Assembly (NCBI GenBank): GCA_964644695.1
Contig: CAZXWN010000015.1
Span: 1 to 64,000, forward strand
Length of the DNA: 64,000 nt
Direction: 5' to 3'
From: an uncultured bacterium
GTDB taxonomy: Bacteria > UBP4 > UBA4092
Positions 1,320 through 43,445 of this stretch are shown one piece after another. Position numbers and translations under genes: made by a program. The notes beneath the pieces were generated by a model. The model worked only from the letters and a program-made list of their open reading frames with translations, made no database searches and had not been told where the DNA came from. The first letter of the stretch is position 1. Every line of letters begins with the position of its first letter.

Positions 1320-4300
1320 ATGAAATATAAAAACTACTTAATACTTGTTTTATTTTTTCTTTTTCCACTAACCTTCTCTTACCCGGCTTGGTGGTGTACG
1401 TTTGATGTCCCGAGTATCAAAATTACATATCCTTTGAATAATTCAAATATAACGAGCACTGATACTGTATTTAAATGGGTTTCAAAATCACGAGTAACTT
1501 CTCTACAGGTTCGTATAAATGATTATTGGTATACTGCTTATCCAGTAGAAAATGATTGGGCTGAAGAGTATGCTGATATAGTTAAATTTGAAACGGATAT
1601 ATCATTACGCTCAGGACGAATTATTTTATTGCAACCTTATGATAGACAAGTGAACATAATTAAACTTTTGGGATGGTTAGATGAAGGCCCCCCCCCCCCT
1701 CCAGGGTGTAATTGTGGCCCAATATGGGAGACAAAAGCCCAAGCAGTTTTTAGAGTATCGCCTTCAAAAAAACATTATAATAAGCCAATTTGGGAGACAT
1801 TTAAGGGAGACCCTGTCAGCATTTCTAATGGGCATGTATTTATTCCTGAAGCAGATGTTATGTATAGTGATATGTTATTGGCTAGAAATTATGATAATCA
1901 ATATAAATATAATGATGGTTTTGGTTATGGGTGGTCATCGCCTTTTATGGTCAAATTGTTGAAGGAAACTGATGATGAATTGGTTTTATGTGATGATATG
2001 GGTCGTAGAATAGAATTTTGGTATGCTAATGAATCTTCCTATTATGGAAACAATCCCATGCGATATGGGGGTATTAAAATACAGAATGACCAATATATTT
2101 TACGAGACTATGAGAATAATACTTATGCTTTTGAAACAACGACAGGTCTGTTACAGTCTTTGATTAGCAATACTCAGGTGACAGTTGCGAATTATAGCTA
2201 TCAGAATAATAAGGTTAGTTCTATAACTGATCAATACGGCAAATCATTTTACTTTATGTGGGATGAACAAGAAAATATCCAAGAAATAAGATATCCAGAT
2301 AACTCAACTACTGGAAGGATTCTGAAATATCGATATGACTCTTATGGAAATTTGACCAGTGTTGTTAATTCAGTGGGTCTGCCTGTTAGTTATTTTTATG
2401 ATGACCCAACCACTCACTGGATAACAAAACGTGAATATGCCGGGCAAAGTATGTATTACCACTATAATGCATATGATAGAGCAACGGTTGTTTCTGGTGA
2501 TGAGGGATATCAATATTATAATTTCAGTCTGGATACTAGCACTATGCAGACGCTAGTGACTGATAAATATGGGGTATCAGAGTTGTATCAATGGAATTAT
2601 TTCGGTGTTATTGAAACAACCTATTTTAGTGATTCCTCAATGATTGTAAATGAATGGGATGGTAGTAGTCAGAACATTAGCCGGAATATTGATGAGGGTA
2701 ATAGAATTATTGATTCGTTTTATGATAGTGAATCTTTGCTGCGGTTTACAATACAATACAGTGGTGTTACAAATTTTTCGTATGTAACAACATATGAAGT
2801 GAATCCCGTATACACTGATATTACAACAATAACTGTTTCTTATGTGACGAGTTTTTCTGATAGGACCACTTTATATAGTTATAATGAAGAAACCGATACA
2901 ACTCCTGGTCGATTATTAGAGTCAATAACGGATCCAATCGGAAATATGGTTGTAAATTTATATGATTCATATGCCAGATTAACTAGTGTTTCATATTATA
3001 CAAATAGAGTTTATCAATTCTCAGAACAACTTTATTATGACCAATATGGGAATATGACTAGTTTTATTCGGCCCGATGGAAGTACATTTCAGGTGTTGTA
3101 TGATAATTTAGGGCATAGTACTTGTTATGTTTTTCCAACTGGTGAGCGGATTTTTTATTCTTTTGATGAATATGGTAATTTACTAACTGCCAGCAATGAA
3201 GTCGGACAGCAAACGATATTTGAATATGATGGTATGGATCAACTGGTTCGAACAACGAGTCCTGGAAATAGGGTGTCCGAATATATCTATGATGACCATT
3301 CAAATTTAGTTTCTTCTATTGATCCGGGTGGGCATGTAAATCAATATTATTATGACCAGTATGATCGTTTAACATGTTCTATATTGTGTGGAGCAGAAAC
3401 AACATGCTATTACTTTGATTCATATGATTTGATGACTGCATCATCAAATTCTAATGGCGTATATTCATATTATACGGTCGATTTAAAGGGGAGACCGTTC
3501 AAATCTATTAATGCTTTGGGTCAATATAGCCAAGTGTATTATGATACGGTAGGCAGAGTGACAGCACAAAGGTTGTTTGATGGGACTATTCATCACTATT
3601 GGTATAACACTTTTGGTGAAATGACTCAATTTACTTATGGGGGAGAAAATAGTACCAGTATATTAACGGGATCTCGATACTATGACTTGATTGGCCGAGA
3701 AACATCACTTTTCCTTCCTGATCGGGGGAGGGTAAATAAAGAGTATGATGTGTTCGGAAATCTCGTAAAATATATATATGGAAGTGATACTTCACAGTTT
3801 AGTTATGATGTTATGGGCCGCCGAACAAGTTATATTAGCCCCGCGGGTTTAGGCTATTCTTATTCCTATGATAGTTCAGGAAGACCCACCGAAATCATTA
3901 ATTGGGCAAATCAGACAACCCGATATTATTATGATTTGCTGGGCAGGGTCACTTCATGCCAGTATGCAAATCAAATCAGGACCCATGTTCATTATGATGA
4001 AATAGGGCAGTTAAATGAGATTCAATATTTAAAACCTAATGGATTACTGATTGAGTCTTTAACTTATGAATATGATACGGAAGGATTGTGTGTTTGGATG
4101 AAATCTTCATTGTCTGAAGAGACGACGTATTATTATTACGATACTTACCATCGATTGACAGGAGAGTTTAATCCTGGAATGGCTGGTGCAAATAAGGTTA
4201 GTTTAAAGAATACTGGAACAGGATCTTTAGGTTTCTCTTCTAATGCAGAATATCGGTTGATGTTAAGCGTAGGAGATGTCGTCAATGGAAAGTCCTTAAA

Positions 4301-5648
4301 CAATAATTACCGAGTCAAATTGGGACTGAATGCTAGTGTGGAACAAACAGGCAGGAAAGAATATTTGAATACATATCGTTATGACCCGATAGGAAACCGA
4401 TTAGAAATGGTCAGTGAAGACACATCTACATATTATGCATATGATGTGTTGGATCGAATAACCAGTTCCCATACCAGTCAAGATTCCACATTCTGGGAAT
4501 ATGATCAGAATGGTCAAGTAACACAAAAGGGTAGTTGGAATTATCAATGGAATGCTTCTGGACAATTAGTATCCGTTGGTGACGTGGAATATCGGTATGA
4601 TGAAATGGGTCGAAGAAATCTTCGAATATATAATGGCAGTACAACAGAGTATGTTTATGATGGATTGACTCCAGTTATTGAAAGAGTAAATGGTGTAACC
4701 CAGAAGATTTATACCTTAAATGGAGGAGTTGTTGGCCAAATTATTTCGGTACGAGAGAATGGACAGGATTATTATTTCAATTATGACCGACAGGGGAATG
4801 TCCGATTTATTACCAATTCTTCGGGGAATGTGATTTCACGATTTGAACAAGACGCATACGGGAATGTGATTTCTGTGTTTGGTAATGATCAATTCAATCG
4901 GCATTTTATTACCAAAGAGAAAGATCCTCAAACTGGATTATATTATTTCGGATCCCGTTGGTACGACCCGGAGACAGGGCGGTGGTTATCTCCCGAGCCT
5001 TTAGGATTGGACGGTCCCAATCTCTATCAGTATGGATTTAATGATCCAGTAAATAATTTGGACCCAGATGGCTATTTAGCTATTAGGATTAATGTGGAAA
5101 ACTATATGGTTCAAGTGGGAAAGCTAAAAGTGTTAGATTTTGAGAAGCGGATTATGGCTCCTCTTGGACATTCTGCTGTGGTGGCAATAGATGAAAAAAC
5201 TGGAAATGTAAGATACTATGAGTACGGTAGATATTCTGCCGGAGGGTCTGTGAAGGAAGTGACCCTTGATTGCAATAAAGTACAAATGTATAATGGCAAG
5301 CCAACCAGTAAATCATTGAAATCATTATATAAAGCAATATTAACTCACAATTCTGATAATAATAGTCACACTTTCATGAGAGGGAGAAAATACATACAAT
5401 TGGAAAGGATGTTGTACTTAAAGATGGAGTATTATCCTCTTGCCGATTACAATAAAGTTGTGAACTATTGCAAAAACATGGAGCGAAATAATTCTAATCC
5501 CAAGAGACCTCTTTATAACATCCTTAATCATAATTGTTTTACGTTTAGTGAGTCCGCTATAGTGGCAGGTTATTATCCTGCAACTATATATAGTTCTGAT
5601 ATTAAAAATGCGTCTATGATGAGTTTATTTTATATGCATCCTCAATAA
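1320..5648 (+). CDS. RHS/YD-repeat protein with signal peptide, DUF6531-like domain, RHS core and a papain-like (His...Cys) C-terminal effector domain
   Basis: GDPVSISNG and FGYGWS motifs, many YD repeats, core motif KEKDPQTGLYYFGSRWYDPETGRWLSPEP...NLYQYGFNDPVNNLDPDG; C-terminus has GHSAVV...YYEYGRY...YNILNHNCFTF. Confidence 0.92.
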   Translation: MKYKNYLILVLFFLFPLTFSYPAWWCTFDVPSIKITYPLNNSNITSTDTVFKWVSKSRVTSLQVRINDYWYTAYPVENDWAEEYADIVKFETDISLRSGRIILLQPYDRQVNIIKLLGWLDEGPPPPPGCNCGPIWETKAQAVFRVSPSKKHYNKPIWETFKGDPVSISNGHVFIPEADVMYSDMLLARNYDNQYKYNDGFGYGWSSPFMVKLLKETDDELVLCDDMGRRIEFWYANESSYYGNNPMRYGGIKIQNDQYILRDYENNTYAFETTTGLLQSLISNTQVTVANYSYQNNKVSSITDQYGKSFYFMWDEQENIQEIRYPDNSTTGRILKYRYDSYGNLTSVVNSVGLPVSYFYDDPTTHWITKREYAGQSMYYHYNAYDRATVVSGDEGYQYYNFSLDTSTMQTLVTDKYGVSELYQWNYFGVIETTYFSDSSMIVNEWDGSSQNISRNIDEGNRIIDSFYDSESLLRFTIQYSGVTNFSYVTTYEVNPVYTDITTITVSYVTSFSDRTTLYSYNEETDTTPGRLLESITDPIGNMVVNLYDSYARLTSVSYYTNRVYQFSEQLYYDQYGNMTSFIRPDGSTFQVLYDNLGHSTCYVFPTGERIFYSFDEYGNLLTASNEVGQQTIFEYDGMDQLVRTTSPGNRVSEYIYDDHSNLVSSIDPGGHVNQYYYDQYDRLTCSILCGAETTCYYFDSYDLMTASSNSNGVYSYYTVDLKGRPFKSINALGQYSQVYYDTVGRVTAQRLFDGTIHHYWYNTFGEMTQFTYGGENSTSILTGSRYYDLIGRETSLFLPDRGRVNKEYDVFGNLVKYIYGSDTSQFSYDVMGRRTSYISPAGLGYSYSYDSSGRPTEIINWANQTTRYYYDLLGRVTSCQYANQIRTHVHYDEIGQLNEIQYLKPNGLLIESLTYEYDTEGLCVWMKSSLSEETTYYYYDTYHRLTGEFNPGMAGANKVSLKNTGTGSLGFSSNAEYRLMLSVGDVVNGKSLNNNYRVKLGLNASVEQTGRKEYLNTYRYDPIGNRLEMVSEDTSTYYAYDVLDRITSSHTSQDSTFWEYDQNGQVTQKGSWNYQWNASGQLVSVGDVEYRYDEMGRRNLRIYNGSTTEYVYDGLTPVIERVNGVTQKIYTLNGGVVGQIISVRENGQDYYFNYDRQGNVRFITNSSGNVISRFEQDAYGNVISVFGNDQFNRHFITKEKDPQTGLYYFGSRWYDPETGRWLSPEPLGLDGPNLYQYGFNDPVNNLDPDGYLAIRINVENYMVQVGKLKVLDFEKRIMAPLGHSAVVAIDEKTGNVRYYEYGRYSAGGSVKEVTLDCNKVQMYNGKPTSKSLKSLYKAILTHNSDNNSHTFMRGRKYIQLERMLYLKMEYYPLADYNKVVNYCKNMERNNSNPKRPLYNILNHNCFTFSESAIVAGYYPATIYSSDIKNASMMSLFYMHPQ
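1688..1699 (+). repeat. C12 homopolymer inside the RHS gene (encodes GPPPPP)
   Basis: GGC CCC CCC CCC CCT read directly from the sequence. Confidence 0.9.
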
Positions 5649-38122: not shown

Positions 38123-39868
38123 ATGCGATTTTTACGGATTGCCATGGCTCAAATCAATACTACGGTAGGTGATTTGGACGGGAATCTTAAAAAGATGGAT
38201 ATGGCTTTGGAAAAAGCCCAGGCAATGAAGGTCGATATTTTATTGTTTCCGGAACTAACCCTGACGGGTTATCCTCCAGAGGACCTTTTATTGAAACCCG
38301 AATTTATTCAGGACAACCTGGAGGCGTTGGATCGATTTGCCAGGAAGGTAACCGGGTTAGTGTGTGTGGTTGGTTATGTTGACCGTAAAGATGATATCTA
38401 TGATGCTGCGGCCGTGATTTACCAGAAGAAGGTACGCGGTGTGTATCATAAGATGTACTTACCTAACTACGGTGTGTTTGATGAAAACCGTTATTTTTGT
38501 GCCGGTCAGGAACCCTTGTTATTCCAATGGGGTGATGTCAGGTTTGGGGTTAATGTCTGTGAAGACATCTGGTATTCTGAAGGGCCGGCCTCCATTCAGT
38601 CCCACTATGGTGCGGATCTGTTGTTAAACTTGAGTTCTTCACCGTATCAGCGGGGGAAATCCAGTGTTCGCGAACAAATGATTCGGACTCGAGCACGTGA
38701 CCATGGTGTTTTCATTGCCTACTGTAACCAGGTGGGTGGACAGGATGAATTGATATTTGACGGGTGCAGTTTGATGGTGGGGCCTTCCGGGAGTTTACTT
38801 GGATGCGGAAAGGCTTTTACTGAAGATTTCATTGTAGGGGATATTGATCTGGATGAGGTCGCCCGAGTAAGGTTAAAAAATCCATTACGCCGTAAACAAA
38901 AAAAAGTCACTAATCCATCTCCTTCTATGGAGCCTCAGATTGTGGATTTACCAAAGTCCACGCATAAAGCCGAATTGAAAAGGGAACCCTTAATTTTCCA
39001 ACGGCACACATTCCCCAATCCTATCGCTGAAGTTTATGAAGCGTTGAAACTTGGTGTTCATGATTATGTGAGTAAGAATGGATTTGGTAAAGTTGTGATT
39101 GGTTTATCGGGTGGAATTGATTCCGCCCTGGTAGCAACTATTGCTGTGGATGCTCTTGGTGCGAAAAATGTATCCGGGGTATTCATGCCGACAAGATTCA
39201 GTTTTGATGCGAGTCGGGAAGATGCCGAAGGTTTAGTTAAGAATCTTAAGATTCGTTATCAAGAGTATTATATTGATGAGCTGTTTCAACAATATCGGGA
39301 TTTATTAGCGGATACCTTTAAGAACAAAAAGTGGGATACTACGGAAGAAAATCTGCAAGCCCGCATTCGTGGTAATCTTTTGATGGCTCTGTCCAATAAG
39401 TTCGGGTGCCTGGTCCTGACAACAGGAAACAAATCCGAAATGAGTACGGGTTATGCCACATTATATGGCGATATGGCTGGAGGTTTTGCCGTTATCAAGG
39501 ATGTTCCCAAAACGCTGGTGTTTGAAATTTGTCGTTATGTGAATCAAGTGGCGGGCTATGACAGAATCCCGGAACGAGTGATTACAAAGCCTCCTACAGC
39601 TGAATTGCGAGATAATCAGAAGGATACGGATTCTCTGCCTCCTTATGATGTATTGGATCCTATTCTGCAAGCCTATGTGGAAGAGGATAAAAGCTATGAA
39701 GAGATTGTTCAGATGGGGAATGATCCTGACATTGTTAAGAGGGTCATCCGTATGGTTGATATCAATGAATATAAGCGGAGGCAGGCTCCTCCGGGTATCA
39801 AGATAACCGCCCGTGCTTTCGGAAAAGATCGCCGGATGCCGATTACCAATCGTTACAAAGGTTTTTAA
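38123..39868 (+). CDS. nadE: Glutamine-dependent NAD+ synthetase
   Basis: Nitrilase domain (FPEL, KMYLPNY, VCEDIW) fused to synthetase domain (GLSGGIDS, ENLQARIR, TGNKSE, EYKRRQAPPG). Confidence 0.96.
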   Translation: MRFLRIAMAQINTTVGDLDGNLKKMDMALEKAQAMKVDILLFPELTLTGYPPEDLLLKPEFIQDNLEALDRFARKVTGLVCVVGYVDRKDDIYDAAAVIYQKKVRGVYHKMYLPNYGVFDENRYFCAGQEPLLFQWGDVRFGVNVCEDIWYSEGPASIQSHYGADLLLNLSSSPYQRGKSSVREQMIRTRARDHGVFIAYCNQVGGQDELIFDGCSLMVGPSGSLLGCGKAFTEDFIVGDIDLDEVARVRLKNPLRRKQKKVTNPSPSMEPQIVDLPKSTHKAELKREPLIFQRHTFPNPIAEVYEALKLGVHDYVSKNGFGKVVIGLSGGIDSALVATIAVDALGAKNVSGVFMPTRFSFDASREDAEGLVKNLKIRYQEYYIDELFQQYRDLLADTFKNKKWDTTEENLQARIRGNLLMALSNKFGCLVLTTGNKSEMSTGYATLYGDMAGGFAVIKDVPKTLVFEICRYVNQVAGYDRIPERVITKPPTAELRDNQKDTDSLPPYDVLDPILQAYVEEDKSYEEIVQMGNDPDIVKRVIRMVDINEYKRRQAPPGIKITARAFGKDRRMPITNRYKGF

Positions 39869-39876
39869 GAAAAACA

Positions 39877-39908
39877 AAAAAAGCCCTTCTCAATCGAGAA
39901 GGGCTTTT
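39877..39908. terminator. Bidirectional terminator
   Basis: AAAAAAGCCCTTCTC-AATC-GAGAAGGGCTTTT between convergent genes. Confidence 0.82.
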
Positions 39909-39926: not shown

Positions 39927-40328
39927 TTACTCCGATTTAATGCTAAGGATTTGTTCCAGAGGCATTGCGGCAACTTCTCGGGCAAATACATCTAATTCTT
40001 CGTGAGTCCTTGGCTTAAACAAGGATTTCATATAATCTGTTAATTCGACCCTAACAGTCTGCCCTGTTTTTTTATTGGATATTTTTGCCATAATCTCAGG
40101 AGCCGTTGTTTGGGAGATATTCGCTTTTCCAAAAGTAGCGCCGGTAGAGAGTTGGAGACCATCAATAAAACACCGTGGGGGTGGAAGGTCAGGACATGCA
40201 ACCTCGACTTTCACTCCAAAATGTTTTTGAGCACCGATGAGTCTGATAGCTTCTTCGCCCGCTCGGTAACCCAGAACGAGATAAGGCCCAAGGTGTCCAT
40301 GAAAAGCAATGATTTGATTAAAATCCAT
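39927..40328 (-). CDS. FmdE (formylmethanofuran dehydrogenase subunit E-like) family protein
   Basis: FHGHLGPYLVLGYR and CFIDGLQLSTGATFGKANI. Confidence 0.85.
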   Translation of the reverse strand: MDFNQIIAFHGHLGPYLVLGYRAGEEAIRLIGAQKHFGVKVEVACPDLPPPRCFIDGLQLSTGATFGKANISQTTAPEIMAKISNKKTGQTVRVELTDYMKSLFKPRTHEELDVFAREVAAMPLEQILSIKSE

Positions 40329-40350
40329 TTAATATGCTCCAGAAAAAATA

Positions 40351-40959
40351 TCAGGCTGCAGCCATATTATTATGGCTGGAGTGTTTGTCAATCAAATAAA
40401 CAATCAAGGGAATAACTATTAATGCCAAAAGTCCCCCCGGAATCCCTTTTGTGACAGTTATCCAAGGTGTCTTAAACGCCCATAGTGTGCCTGCTGCCTG
40501 CCTGATTTCAAAAGAGGGATATAGTTCTGCCAGTGGGTGTCCAAATATAAACAAGTAAATCAGTAACGCAATTTTACCCGCTAAAATTCCAGCCAATACT
40601 GAATAATGAACGGGCCAGTTCCATTTGAAACGAGCTAAGGATATGACAAAGGCATACGCCAATGCTTCCGATGTCACCATCCAAATAAACGGCGGCGTAA
40701 AAGAGGGCATTCCCGTTTGCAATGCAGTTAGAAGTGGCAACAGAATCCCTACCGCAACAGCGATATAGGGTTCAACCATACAGGCCGCAAGTCCTATTGG
40801 AATGAATAGTGGCATCCACGCTGATCCCAGTGACAGCATGTGAAAGGGTATTGTAAAAAAACCGCCAAATCCTGTAAGGACCCCGGCCATAATCAGCCGT
40901 TTAGGTAGAGCAATATTTAATATACCAACATGTGTACTCATAATGATTATTCCATTCAT
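40351..40959 (-). CDS. ECF transporter S component
   Basis: P.FHML.LGS.WMPLFIP..LA, P.L.AL.TGMP...PP...M..E, G.PG.L..L..IP; about 6 TM helices. Confidence 0.72.
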   Translation of the reverse strand: MNGIIIMSTHVGILNIALPKRLIMAGVLTGFGGFFTIPFHMLSLGSAWMPLFIPIGLAACMVEPYIAVAVGILLPLLTALQTGMPSFTPPFIWMVTSEALAYAFVISLARFKWNWPVHYSVLAGILAGKIALLIYLFIFGHPLAELYPSFEIRQAAGTLWAFKTPWITVTKGIPGGLLALIVIPLIVYLIDKHSSHNNMAAA

Positions 40960-40965
40960 TGTAAC

Positions 40966-41568
40966 TTAAAATGCCGGAGGAGAATTATCACTGCGAGCTT
41001 GACATCTGACGACATCCCCATTAGATACTGTTCCGTTGGTTGGGTCATAAGTAATGTTTGATTTAATATCTGCACCACGATCGCCATCGGGACCACAGGC
41101 AGCCATTCGCCATTCGCCCCATCTGGGTTTCAATAAACTGGTCCATGCCGGTGGAGGTTGTGTGAAATTCGCCAAGTGCTGATTCAAATTCAAATAGTTA
41201 TATTCCCGGATAAAAGGTAGTGGTGTTGTTCCTCCCGTGGCAAATGGATCCGTAGGAATACTGCTCATATAAGCAATTGGAGTCGTTAATCCCCGTGAAA
41301 CGTATTCCTGCGGTCCCGTCATTTCATTGACGATGGCTGGATATTCAGTGGTATATGAAGTTCCGATGACTCGTCCATAGAGAGGGTATTCGTTATTATC
41401 CACCATATAACTCTCAATGGCAGTTGCCATACTCGCCATATCCGATTGAGTTCTGCTGACCTTTGCCCGCACTTGGGCAGCCAAAAAGTTTGGTATTGCA
41501 ATCGCTGCCAGGATAGCGATGATGGCAACGACAATCAGTAGTTCAATGAGTGTAAATCCCTTTTTCAT
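40966..41568 (-). CDS. Prepilin-type N-terminal cleavage/methylation protein (pseudopilin-like)
   Basis: MKKG/FTLIELLIVVAIIAILAAIAIPNF; LTTPIAYMSSIPTDPF, GPD and YDPTNGTVSNGDV. Confidence 0.9.
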   Translation of the reverse strand: MKKGFTLIELLIVVAIIAILAAIAIPNFLAAQVRAKVSRTQSDMASMATAIESYMVDNNEYPLYGRVIGTSYTTEYPAIVNEMTGPQEYVSRGLTTPIAYMSSIPTDPFATGGTTPLPFIREYNYLNLNQHLANFTQPPPAWTSLLKPRWGEWRMAACGPDGDRGADIKSNITYDPTNGTVSNGDVVRCQARSDNSPPAF

Positions 41569-41584
41569 GATGTTCCTTTCTAGT

Positions 41585-41611
41585 GTGATACGAATTTTAT
41601 AAAAGTAGCAC
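41585..41611. promoter_or_regulatory. Putative NikR operator overlapping the -10 box of the prepilin operon
   Basis: GTGATAC-N13-GTAGCAC inverted repeat (1 mismatch); minus-strand TAAAAT in the spacer; extra half-site ATAGCAC at 41626-41632. Confidence 0.7.
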
Positions 41612-41631
41612 GATATGCGAAAAAAATAGCA

Positions 41632-42060
41632 CTAAGTTTTAGTGGAGGTGATCACCAGCTTTCCATGTTTTACGCCTTTCATTCCGAGAAGTGCGTCAGA
41701 CATTTGCTTGAGTCTTGAACCAGGTCCTTTCAAGGCTATCACTTCCATACAATCGTCATGCGAAAGATGGACATGCAGGGTGGCAATAATCAAATCCCCA
41801 AATTCATGTTGGAAATGAGTTAGTTTATGAGTAATGTCATGGGCGTGATGATTATAGACCATAGTGAGAGAGCCTGCGACGGGAATGTCCGTCAAAGCTT
41901 CTTCTCGTACGAGCGCATCCCGAATCAAATCACGCAGAGCCTCAGACCGATTGTTGTACCCCTTCTGGGCGATGAGGGTATCAAAGCGGTCCAGTAAATT
42001 CTCTTCTATAGATACACCGAATCGGAACAGTGTACCTGCTGTTTCTTTATTGTGTGGCAC
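41632..42060 (-). CDS. nikR: Nickel-responsive transcriptional regulator
   Basis: RFGVSI...FD...GYNNRSEALRDLIR (ribbon-helix-helix), YNHH, HVHLSHDDCMEV (Ni ligands), GVKHGKL; GTG 42060 follows TTGACA-18-TACGAT. Confidence 0.95.
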   Translation of the reverse strand: MPHNKETAGTLFRFGVSIEENLLDRFDTLIAQKGYNNRSEALRDLIRDALVREEALTDIPVAGSLTMVYNHHAHDITHKLTHFQHEFGDLIIATLHVHLSHDDCMEVIALKGPGSRLKQMSDALLGMKGVKHGKLVITSTKT

Positions 42061-42176
42061 GATGCAAACAATCGTAGCAATAATAGAAATCAATTGTCAA
42101 TAGATAAGTTACGAAAAAATACGGGATGTTTTGACAGGTTTGATTTACTTCGATAGGATTCATAAAGAGGTTGGAG

Positions 42177-43445
42177 ATGTTTGTGAATAAAAAAAGTACT
42201 GAAAAATCCCCGGGTTTCTATCATCGTTTTCGTCTTTTTTATTTTATTTACTTCAGCAGTGTAGGTTGCTTTTGGCCGTTTATCTCCCTGTTTTTCAAAA
42301 AATTGGGATTCACGGGAAGCCAAATCGGGTTATTAATGGCTGTGGGACCGATGGTCATGATATTGATGCAGCCCGTGTGGGGCATCGTGAATGACAGGAC
42401 ACCTGCTGGATACAGTTTGGTTCGATTTGTTTGTGTGGGAGCCATTTGTGTAGCTTCGGGTTTCCTGATACCTGAGAGTTATTTGTTTTATATTCTTTTA
42501 ATGGCTCTGTTTTCCTTCTTTTCATATGCCATCATTCCGATGGTGGATACGGCTACCATTCAAGCTGTCAGAGGGACTCAAGTAAATTACGGTCAAATCC
42601 GTGCATGGGGCTCATTGGGTTTCTGTATTTTCTCGGTACTGGTGGGACAGATCTCCAAATACTCAGAAATGGGGAGCTTCTATCGATACCTTCATCCACA
42701 TATGGATTCCCAGATATTGAATAATATCGGAGGATTAGCCTTCTTCATTCCTGCCTATATTTCGGTTATGTTGATTGCTTTTGGATTAACTTTCACTTTA
42801 CCTAAAGTTGAAAAACCAAAACAATCCGGCCGTAATATTGGCAAGTTATATGTATTACTTCGCCGGCCTCGTTTCCTTGTGTTTTTGATTACGGTTTTCT
42901 TCTTTATGTTGACCATGAATTGTAATAGCTATTTCTTTTCTCTCTATTTTGATGGATTAAAGGGGGACACCGGACAACTGGGAATAGCACTATCCCTTGC
43001 GGCTTTGAGTGAGGTTCCGGTATTTTTCTTTGCCTCATGGCTGCTCAAACGGCTGAAGCCTCTCCAATTATTGGGAATTGCTGCCAGTACGGCTGCTTTA
43101 CGCTGGTACCTGTATACTCTTGTTGGTAATCCGCTTATGACCTTCCCTTTGCAATTTTTCCATGCCATAAACTTTGGTTCCTACTATGCGGGTGCGGTTC
43201 ATTTCGTGGATATAGAAACTCCTCAGGAATGGAAAACTACTGGCCAGACAATATTCTGGGCCGTAGGATATGGACTTTCTGCAATCATCGGCAGCCTTTT
43301 CGGGGGCTTTATTATCGAAAAATGGAATGTCATCATCATGTACGAGATTCTGTCGGTATTGGCATTACTGGCGGCTGGAGTGTTTTTCATGATTGACCGA
43401 ATATTTCCCAAAACAGATTCTGATACTATTCCTTCTGTAAGCTGA
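42177..43445 (+). CDS. MFS transporter (nucleoside:H+ symporter/MFS_1-like)
   Basis: 12 TM pattern, QPVWGIVND, YGQIRAWGSLGF, SEVPVFF. Confidence 0.88.
   Translation: MFVNKKSTEKSPGFYHRFRLFYFIYFSSVGCFWPFISLFFKKLGFTGSQIGLLMAVGPMVMILMQPVWGIVNDRTPAGYSLVRFVCVGAICVASGFLIPESYLFYILLMALFSFFSYAIIPMVDTATIQAVRGTQVNYGQIRAWGSLGFCIFSVLVGQISKYSEMGSFYRYLHPHMDSQILNNIGGLAFFIPAYISVMLIAFGLTFTLPKVEKPKQSGRNIGKLYVLLRRPRFLVFLITVFFFMLTMNCNSYFFSLYFDGLKGDTGQLGIALSLAALSEVPVFFFASWLLKRLKPLQLLGIAASTAALRWYLYTLVGNPLMTFPLQFFHAINFGSYYAGAVHFVDIETPQEWKTTGQTIFWAVGYGLSAIIGSLFGGFIIEKWNVIIMYEILSVLALLAAGVFFMIDRIFPKTDSDTIPSVS

Follow-up and report, generated by a model that had tools for sequence, protein, structure and literature searches.

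How does a pilin-like gene come to stand between a nickel regulator and a putative transporter? The arrangement occurs in a 64,000-nucleotide stretch of DNA (the window: contig CAZXWN010000015.1 of assembly GCA_964644695.1, positions 1 to 64,000) from an uncultured bacterium of the candidate phylum UBP4, in which nikR is followed by genes for a prepilin-type protein (the pilin), for a membrane protein with the S-component fold of energy-coupling factor (ECF) transporters (the S protein) and for an FmdE-family protein. Our answer, held with moderate confidence, is that these genes form a NikR-repressed nickel acquisition unit in which the pilin would be an extracytoplasmic accessory, the solitary S-fold protein the permease and FmdE the acceptor. 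The nikR-pilin-S-fmdE unit is probably the nickel supply line of its host. What we observe is the gene order, its conservation, the folds of the proteins, operator-like sites and no matches in the genome to the other nickel importer families searched. That genome (G000) comprises 3.07 Mb and is 98.67% complete; comparison within the lineage covered it and four other UBP4 genomes (G001–G004), across two families.

Gene order and candidate NikR operators

The unit and its signals are laid out as follows.

41632–42093, minus strand: nikR, as the longest open reading frame; a GTG at 42060 is the likelier start
42054–42100, minus strand: promoter-like site of nikR, TTGACA-18-TACGAT (promoter scan 10/12, with TG)
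42080–42054, minus strand: candidate autoregulatory operator TTGCTAC-N13-GTGCCAC, overlapping the nikR promoter-like site
41594–41621, minus strand: promoter-like site of pilin-S-fmdE, TTCGCA-16-TAAAAT, a consensus match alone (9/12 positions)
41585–41611, minus strand: candidate NikR operator before the pilin gene, GTGCTAC-N13-GTATCAC in the minus-strand reading
40966–41568, minus strand: pilin-like gene, encoding a GspG-like pseudopilin of 200 aa (PF07963, 33.7 bits)
40351–40959, minus strand: S-like gene, encoding an S-component-fold membrane protein of 202 aa (196 aa from the ATG at 40941)
39927–40328, minus strand: fmdE, encoding a single-domain protein of 133 aa (PF02663, 72.8 bits)
39879–39908, minus strand: intrinsic-terminator-like hairpin closing the operon (13-bp stem and T run)

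An earlier note on this DNA had described a nikR-linked operon headed by a pilin-like gene, and that description is borne out: nikR, the inverted repeat, the −10 box, the three following genes and the terminator are all present where it claimed them, and its gaps of 6 nt (pilin to S) and 22 nt (S to fmdE) are correct with the longest open reading frames. The first gap becomes 24 nt if the S-like gene starts at its second ATG (40941), a start suggested by a near-identical database entry of 196 aa. The synteny that the note proposed to check also holds, with nikR, pilin, S-like gene and fmdE in identical order in 5/5 UBP4 genomes. Among these genomes the pilin is better conserved (62–76% identity) than the S protein (37–53%).

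The regulator is a full NikR by its domains, with an N-terminal ribbon-helix-helix (PF01402, 31.1 bits) and a C-terminal NikR nickel-binding domain (PF08753, 105.8 bits), and it scores 175.8 bits against NF003381 (cut-off 105). It contains the stretch HVHLSHDDC, with more histidines upstream, a possible counterpart of the high-affinity nickel site of the Escherichia coli type (His-x-His...Cys and a histidine of the neighbouring chain).

On the forward strand the candidate operator reads GTGATAC-N13-GTAGCAC, a sequence present once in the window (41585–41611) and in none of 100 shuffles, and its arms are complementary at 6/7 positions. A repeat search with exact 6-nt seeds missed it, because each arm has a mismatch in its middle. 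The repeat spans the spacer and −10 box of the pilin-S-fmdE promoter-like site. It is of the published operator type, with one mismatch per arm from the delta-proteobacterial NikR signal GTGTTAC-[N13/14]-GTAACAC, whose half-sites are recorded in either orientation (PMC545781). In all five UBP4 genomes the interval from nikR to the pilin gene contains GT(AGC/GCT)AC-N13-GTAT at the same position, and the nikR promoter of each has a 7-N13-7 site as well (GTGTTAC-N13-GTGTTAC in G003). The layout thereby resembles the delta-proteobacterial nik(MN)QO and nikKMLQO operons, which have nikR beside the uptake genes and a 27–28 bp operator of the 7-N13/14-7 GTGTTAC/GTAACAC type (PMC545781, Rodionov et al. 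2004). Those nikKMLQO operons include the exported proteins NikK and NikL, of unknown role, where the accessory here is a pseudopilin; unlike nik(MN)QO and nikKMLQO, the window operon has no NikM/CbiM (PF01891), no NikQ/EcfT (PF02361) and no NikO.

The pilin, its paralogues and its clade

The pilin carries a class III signal peptide (MKKG/FTLIELL) with the N-methylation motif and Glu+5, and matches TIGR02532 (37.7 bits) in addition to PF07963. Its AF2 model (pLDDT 91) shows a long N-terminal helix (residues 7–58) on a small beta-sheet head, which places it in the pilin superfamily. The best structural matches are major pseudopilins (EpsG, Z 8.1, rmsd 2.5 over 99 residues; PulG, Z 7.4), and it shares with GspG, EpsG and PulG the signal peptide (Gly-1, Phe+1, Glu+5), the long helix and the head fold; its head is about 60 residues larger than theirs, and a sequence search of solved structures found no relative of it. 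One structure entry for PulG is titled calcium-bound, a precedent for metal binding by such heads. Identity with GspG itself was rejected, given a TIGR01710 score (54.3 bits) below the GspG equivalog cut-off (88.85) and neighbours that are nikR and an S-fold protein, with no gsp cluster. It also differs from GspG in lying within a nikR operon, away from any secretion or pilus cluster, and in being one of about 28 paralogues.

Pilin-type proteins can serve import: the competence pseudopilus (ComGC-type), with a secretin, takes up DNA, and the Sulfolobus bindosome consists of sugar-binding proteins that have pilin-type signal peptides with ordinary binding-protein domains behind them. To our knowledge, neither is known for metals. 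The pilin studied here would resemble both in being used for import rather than for export or adhesion. A bindosome-type binding protein is ruled out, since the head is pseudopilin-like and carries no solute-binding-protein (SBP) domain: a Pfam scan of the pilin found no match to an SBP family, and structurally the head matches pseudopilins only.

The genome holds many relatives of this protein. We found 37 matches to the pilin in G000, of which about 28 are full-length, share an identical N-terminal helix, have YDPTNGT near the end and often form tandem arrays of 2–4 (contigs C1–C20, loci L002–L027; for example C2:43971-45897, C2:242878-245611 and C3:231530-234182). The genes beside them encode for the most part secreted hydrolases, binding proteins, pilus or secretion components and T2SSF proteins, and include GH20 hexosaminidases, SBP_bac_1 (an ABC sugar-binding protein), a phosphodiesterase, Golvesin_C/NAGPA, BNR and DUF5689. 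With one prepilin peptidase match and four secretin matches, the genome encodes parts for processing and assembling such proteins. Beyond the genome, the pilin's clade is small, with five cluster representatives at E ≤ 1e-30 among 1.84 billion, and a metagenome scan with the pilin head gave two loci, one a near-identical copy, that added no context.

These surroundings bear on an alternative that we consider quite unlikely, namely that the pilin is nickel-regulated and stands outside uptake, with only the S protein and FmdE handling nickel; it would then be a pseudopilus variant secreting a nickel-scavenging or nickel-dependent exoprotein, or a surface structure remodelled under starvation. 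Its fold is that of a major pseudopilin of the type II secretion system, whose known role is secretion; its G000 paralogues lie beside GH20, phosphodiesterase, SBP_bac_1 and BNR proteins; and its head is without a clear nickel site. Yet no conserved candidate gene for a secreted cargo lies alongside, and further evidence against this alternative comes from a second phylum.

A profile of the pilin head picked out two genomes of an unrelated family, with a single high-scoring copy in each; there nikR and a pilin-FmdE pair diverge, and the S gene is missing. Head matches at E ≤ 1e-30 occur in 20 of 75 genomes of this second phylum, and 20 of 23 such places fall within the clade of the operon pilin; submitters label the proteins Sumerlaeota or Hydrogenedentes. 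The neighbour counts that follow cover the 20 in-clade loci, with nikR matches made by a G353 query and Pfam, and with four features read by eye from translations (ZnuA-like proteins in L081 and L082, a T-component-like fragment in L078 and a methyltransferase in L075). nikR adjoins the pilin in six loci, and FmdE lies directly downstream of it in seven. A ZnuA-like protein and then an ABC ATPase follow in three (one Pfam-scored, two by eye); one locus has an ABC ATPase upstream, and two have an S-like gene downstream. The palindrome TCA[CT]ACG-N11-CGT[GA]TGA stands just upstream of the pilin in 8/20 loci at up to one mismatch, with looser palindromes in three more, and it has no occurrence at that stringency in G000 (one strand, 3.07 Mb). 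Its half-sites match those of the enterobacterial NikR signal, with their order exchanged (PMC545781). At least one feature of the set nikR, FmdE, transporter, S-like gene or box is present in 15/20 loci.

The link between the pilin and nickel is strengthened by this recurrence, in which members of the same clade accompany NikR boxes and genes for metal uptake in another phylum. The specific role once given to the pilin fares worse: the earlier note had placed it in the slot of a solute-binding protein, and this is weakened by the three loci in which the pilin comes directly before a ZnuA-like protein and an ABC ATPase, since the ZnuA-like protein beside it already fills that slot. For a pilin outside uptake, the four kinds of partner in the second phylum (FmdE, ZnuA-like/ABC, ABC ATPase, S-like) count as evidence against, as does its frequent position as the first gene after a NikR box.

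Two side observations belong to these loci. In L087, directly upstream of the nikR-pilin pair, positions 2855-3343 (minus strand) encode a 163-aa secreted protein with Cys-rich repeats (CC..., DCSAAKCG...), which may be a metal binder. In L078, the FmdE gene downstream of the pilin (1916-2580) reads in two overlapping frames, the result of either a frameshift or an assembly error.

A quick maximum-likelihood tree with SH-aLRT support places 25 rows (5 UBP4 and 20 second-phylum) on one side of a branch with a support of 98.7. Labels for the clade were assigned once the similarity search had been made, and part of its coherence is therefore a product of that choice; more is learned from the paralogues placed outside it, among them all 27 others of G000. 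His131 is present in 22/25 clade members and in 0/39 pilins outside, and Cys189 in 12/25 members. The three members without His131 (L090–L092) have no adjoining nikR, FmdE, transporter or box, L092 having only a downstream methyltransferase. The UBP4 pilins do not form one group in this tree; those of G003 and G004 stand with a second-phylum subclade (support 87), which may reflect gene transfer between phyla or weak resolution.

A lineage accident, in which one of some 28 paralogues happened to land between nikR and an unrelated vitamin transporter, would draw on the huge expansion and scatter of the family (the 37 matches in G000). It is nevertheless extremely improbable, being close to refuted by synteny, the second phylum and the tree: the gene order is kept in all five UBP4 genomes, the operon pilin stands in a distinct clade marked by signature residues, and the link to nikR and FmdE recurs in the other phylum, in loci where the S gene is lacking.

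The S protein, FmdE and the cargo

The S protein has the S-component fold. It scores 32.6 bits against PF12822 (cut-off 30.7), and the top 19 structural matches of its model (pLDDT 84.8) are all S components, with Z scores of 14.8 for RibU, 13.6 for PanT, 13.3 for ThiT, 12.0 for BioY, 10.7 for NikM2 and 10.5 for CbiM; a sequence search of solved structures found no relative. Its gene is single-copy in G000. NikM/CbiM S components are defined by an N-terminal Met-His metal-binding arm. Here the N-terminus reads MNGIII/MSTHVG, and PF01891 has no match in this protein or anywhere in G000, so the protein is not of the NikM/CbiM kind. Across the family H40 and E98 never vary and M84 hardly does.

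The earlier note had called the protein an ECF S component. A place in a shared ECF transporter is unsupported, since EcfT (PF02361) has no match in G000, G001, G003 or G004; among the relatives G002 alone has one. The protein does not look like an ordinary ECF S component, and for lack of EcfT we do not file it as an ECF transporter. Of the earlier interpretation as a whole, then, the nikR-pilin operon stands, a shared ECF module finds no support and the binding-protein slot is left weaker. The other place that the note offered the pilin, that of an outer-membrane receptor, is a possible one in G000, where secretins have four matches and TonB-dependent receptors none. Solitary S components that transport alone have been described, BioY for biotin and BtuM for B12 (PMC11109136). 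The window protein shares their fold and would likewise work without an ECF module; it differs from them in a substrate that is presumably nickel rather than a vitamin, in having no sequence relative among solved structures and in pairing with FmdE, in UBP4, or with a methyltransferase, in many of the outside loci described below. From sequence and gene context it is a candidate inner-membrane nickel permease.

Its close family is narrow, with 12 proteins before a gap to E 1e-16, and a profile scan of genome contigs with the S alignment returned three loci, all of the same lineage. Outside the lineage, a profile that includes distant members detects the S-like family in 35 of the 396 genomes sampled (about 9%). 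Among 25 of these outside loci that we read (L105–L129), FmdE adjoins the S-like gene in three and nikR lies directly upstream in two. One SAM methyltransferase family adjoins it in 14, once as a fusion (L127), and this S-like and methyltransferase two-gene module stands directly behind nikR twice (L108, L109); eight loci have no FmdE, nikR or methyltransferase beside the gene. This methyltransferase is also found behind clade pilins, in L079, L084 and L092.

FmdE matches PF02663 well above the cut-off of 22.9 bits and 2gvi at E 1.7e-9, and has the alpha+beta core domain of the family. H10, H12 and C53 are invariant in 10 sequences, and Gly14 stands where the second Cys would be, so that three of four homologous metal ligands are retained. 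Like B8FYU2_DESHY (2GLZ), it is a single alpha+beta core domain with the HGH motif and the distal Cys; it differs from PF02663 members in the Gly replacing the Cys of HGHxCP and in lacking a zinc ribbon. The His-His-Cys-Cys site of 2GLZ held mixed zinc and nickel, at Zn:Ni 2.6:1, and most PF02663 genes neighbour metal-ion transporters (PMC2954224, Axelrod et al. 2010), a setting that the window's fmdE shares if the S protein, here a candidate, is such a transporter. Three structures of the family have been solved, and no function is established for any member. In UBP4 FmdE is without a signal peptide; among the seven second-phylum loci that carry it, three encode a signal peptide and the four other proteins start His-rich. 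We regard the UBP4 protein, from its retained ligands and neighbours, as a candidate cytoplasmic nickel acceptor. A predicted complex between the S protein and FmdE scored 0.00 (mark 0.32), which speaks neither for nor against their pairing.

G000 has a use for nickel, encoding a [NiFe] hydrogenase large subunit and HypA. Searches of the genome for CbiM/NikM, NicO (NiCoT), HupE/UreJ and EcfT gave no match, nor did a search for TonB-dependent receptor barrels. These results count against a unit for another metal (cobalt, zinc) or for protection from metal excess that NikR merely cross-regulates, which we judge very unlikely. Such a unit would accord with the ZnuA-type proteins in three loci, classically zinc or manganese binders, and with the predominance of zinc in the FmdE crystal site (PMC2954224). 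It is at odds with a regulator that is a full NikR above the equivalog cut-off, with NikR-type palindromes before the pilin in 8–11 of the 20 second-phylum loci, with a genome that needs nickel and has no match to the other importer families searched, and with an operon that contains no efflux-type gene.

The chief rival concerns the form in which nickel travels. We think it unlikely, if less so than the other alternatives, that the cargo is a nickel complex (a nickelophore or a Ni-amino-acid chelate) rather than the free ion, with the pilin and the S protein recognising the organic part and with FmdE or, in relatives, the SAM methyltransferase processing the complex in the cytoplasm. The S protein model is nearer to the vitamin-type RibU, PanT and ThiT than to NikM2 or CbiM, the methyltransferase beside the S-like gene in 14/25 loci hints at organic-ligand chemistry, and Gly14 in place of Cys in the FmdE site leaves space for an outside ligand; an unidentified ligand lies near the homologous site in 2GVI (PMC2954224). 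But the operon holds no gene for chelator biosynthesis, and the invariant H40 and E98 and nearly invariant M84 of the S protein suit a bare ion equally.

A candidate nickel supply line

Drawn together as a NikR-repressed acquisition unit, the parts could work as follows. With ample nickel, Ni-NikR would bind the 7-N13-7 operator over the −10 box and block transcription of pilin-S-fmdE, and a second site over the promoter of nikR itself would give autoregulation. With scarce nickel, the pilin, the S protein and FmdE would be produced. The host's prepilin peptidase would cleave the pilin after Gly4, and a resident pilus or type II secretion-like machine might then employ it as an extracytoplasmic accessory that aids nickel, or a nickel complex, toward the inner membrane, either via a secretin across the outer membrane or as an anchored periplasmic binder. 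No ECF module would be needed for the S-fold protein to move nickel over the inner membrane; on the cytoplasmic side FmdE would receive it for use by HypA and the hydrogenase.

Several points weigh against this account. The NikR motif by itself is no commoner than in shuffled sequence: 30 sites within two mismatches of the published signal occur in the 3.07 Mb of G000, as against 53–65 in three shuffles, and a closer match (one mismatch), surely due to chance, lies at window position 2764 within a large repeat-protein gene. Since the motif alone is not enriched, the case for the operator rests on its position beside nikR and on its conservation, and that conservation is itself partial, the right arm being kept in UBP4 only as GTAT and the left arm being flipped in G000 relative to its relatives. 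The pilin head offers His131 as its sole clade-specific candidate ligand, which is thin for a nickel site, and nickel capture by that head is something we purely infer. The place of FmdE in the pathway may differ between lineages, as its signal peptide does. In the second phylum, two of the 20 in-clade loci have only a methyltransferase beside the pilin and three have no metal-related neighbour. The importer search in G000 left out Opp/NikA-type ABC systems, which weakens the argument that no other route exists. Two contigs of 151 nt from a single metatranscriptome lie on fmdE and on the 5′ end of the pilin gene, the latter a region nearly identical across all paralogues, and these are too little to count as evidence of expression; the remaining runs labelled RNA are probably DNA. 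Every step of binding and transport, finally, is one that we infer.

A definition of the regulon by genome-wide consensus scan was also tried and rejected, the sites being fewer than in shuffles and the best one intragenic.

A broader interpretation can be offered tentatively, as a possibility in which our doubt exceeds our belief: this clade of pseudopilins may have been co-opted to serve as the outer component of nickel uptake in diderms without TonB-dependent receptors. A NikR-controlled pseudopilus might, by analogy with competence pili that fetch DNA, fetch nickel or a nickel complex through a secretin, and the cargo could conceivably pass to whichever importer the lineage has, be it a solitary S-fold permease, a ZnuA-type ABC system or an ECF transporter. 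FmdE might in that case be the common nickel acceptor, cytoplasmic or periplasmic, and the paralogues beside hydrolases and binding proteins could perhaps be cargo-specific versions of one import device.

The surroundings of the unit contribute few further features. An MFS_1_like transporter (window 42171-43445; PF12832, 243.8 bits) is divergent from nikR; it recurs beside the unit in G001 (L032), not in the other UBP4 relatives, and is probably outside the unit. An Rfam scan of the locus found no riboswitch or leader above threshold, and of nine sub-threshold rows eight lie on or beside the terminator hairpin and one is a snoRNA model at 39640-39703. Run records carry the habitat labels sludge and biogas. 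Farther away, at 1320-5648, the window encodes a 1442-aa protein that combines numerous YD/RHS-type repeats with a distinct C-terminal part; two small open reading frames come before it.

Our literature searches found no paper on NikR together with a pseudopilin, on nickel with prepilin-type proteins and NikR, or on DUF1559 and nickel; FmdE and NikR appeared together only in one methanogen genome paper unrelated to a nickel pilin. We found no described counterpart of the pilin-like part in metal uptake.

Many uncultured anaerobes depend on nickel for hydrogenase and yet lack the textbook importers, and the route by which the metal passes their envelope is unknown. This locus supplies three testable candidates for that route: a pseudopilin, a solitary S-fold permease family and FmdE, whose family is still without a function since the structures of 2010. 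If true, uptake by the S protein alone would mean a new family of nickel permeases, and the large, unexplained expansions of pilin-like proteins in several phyla gain a first concrete, regulated function to test.

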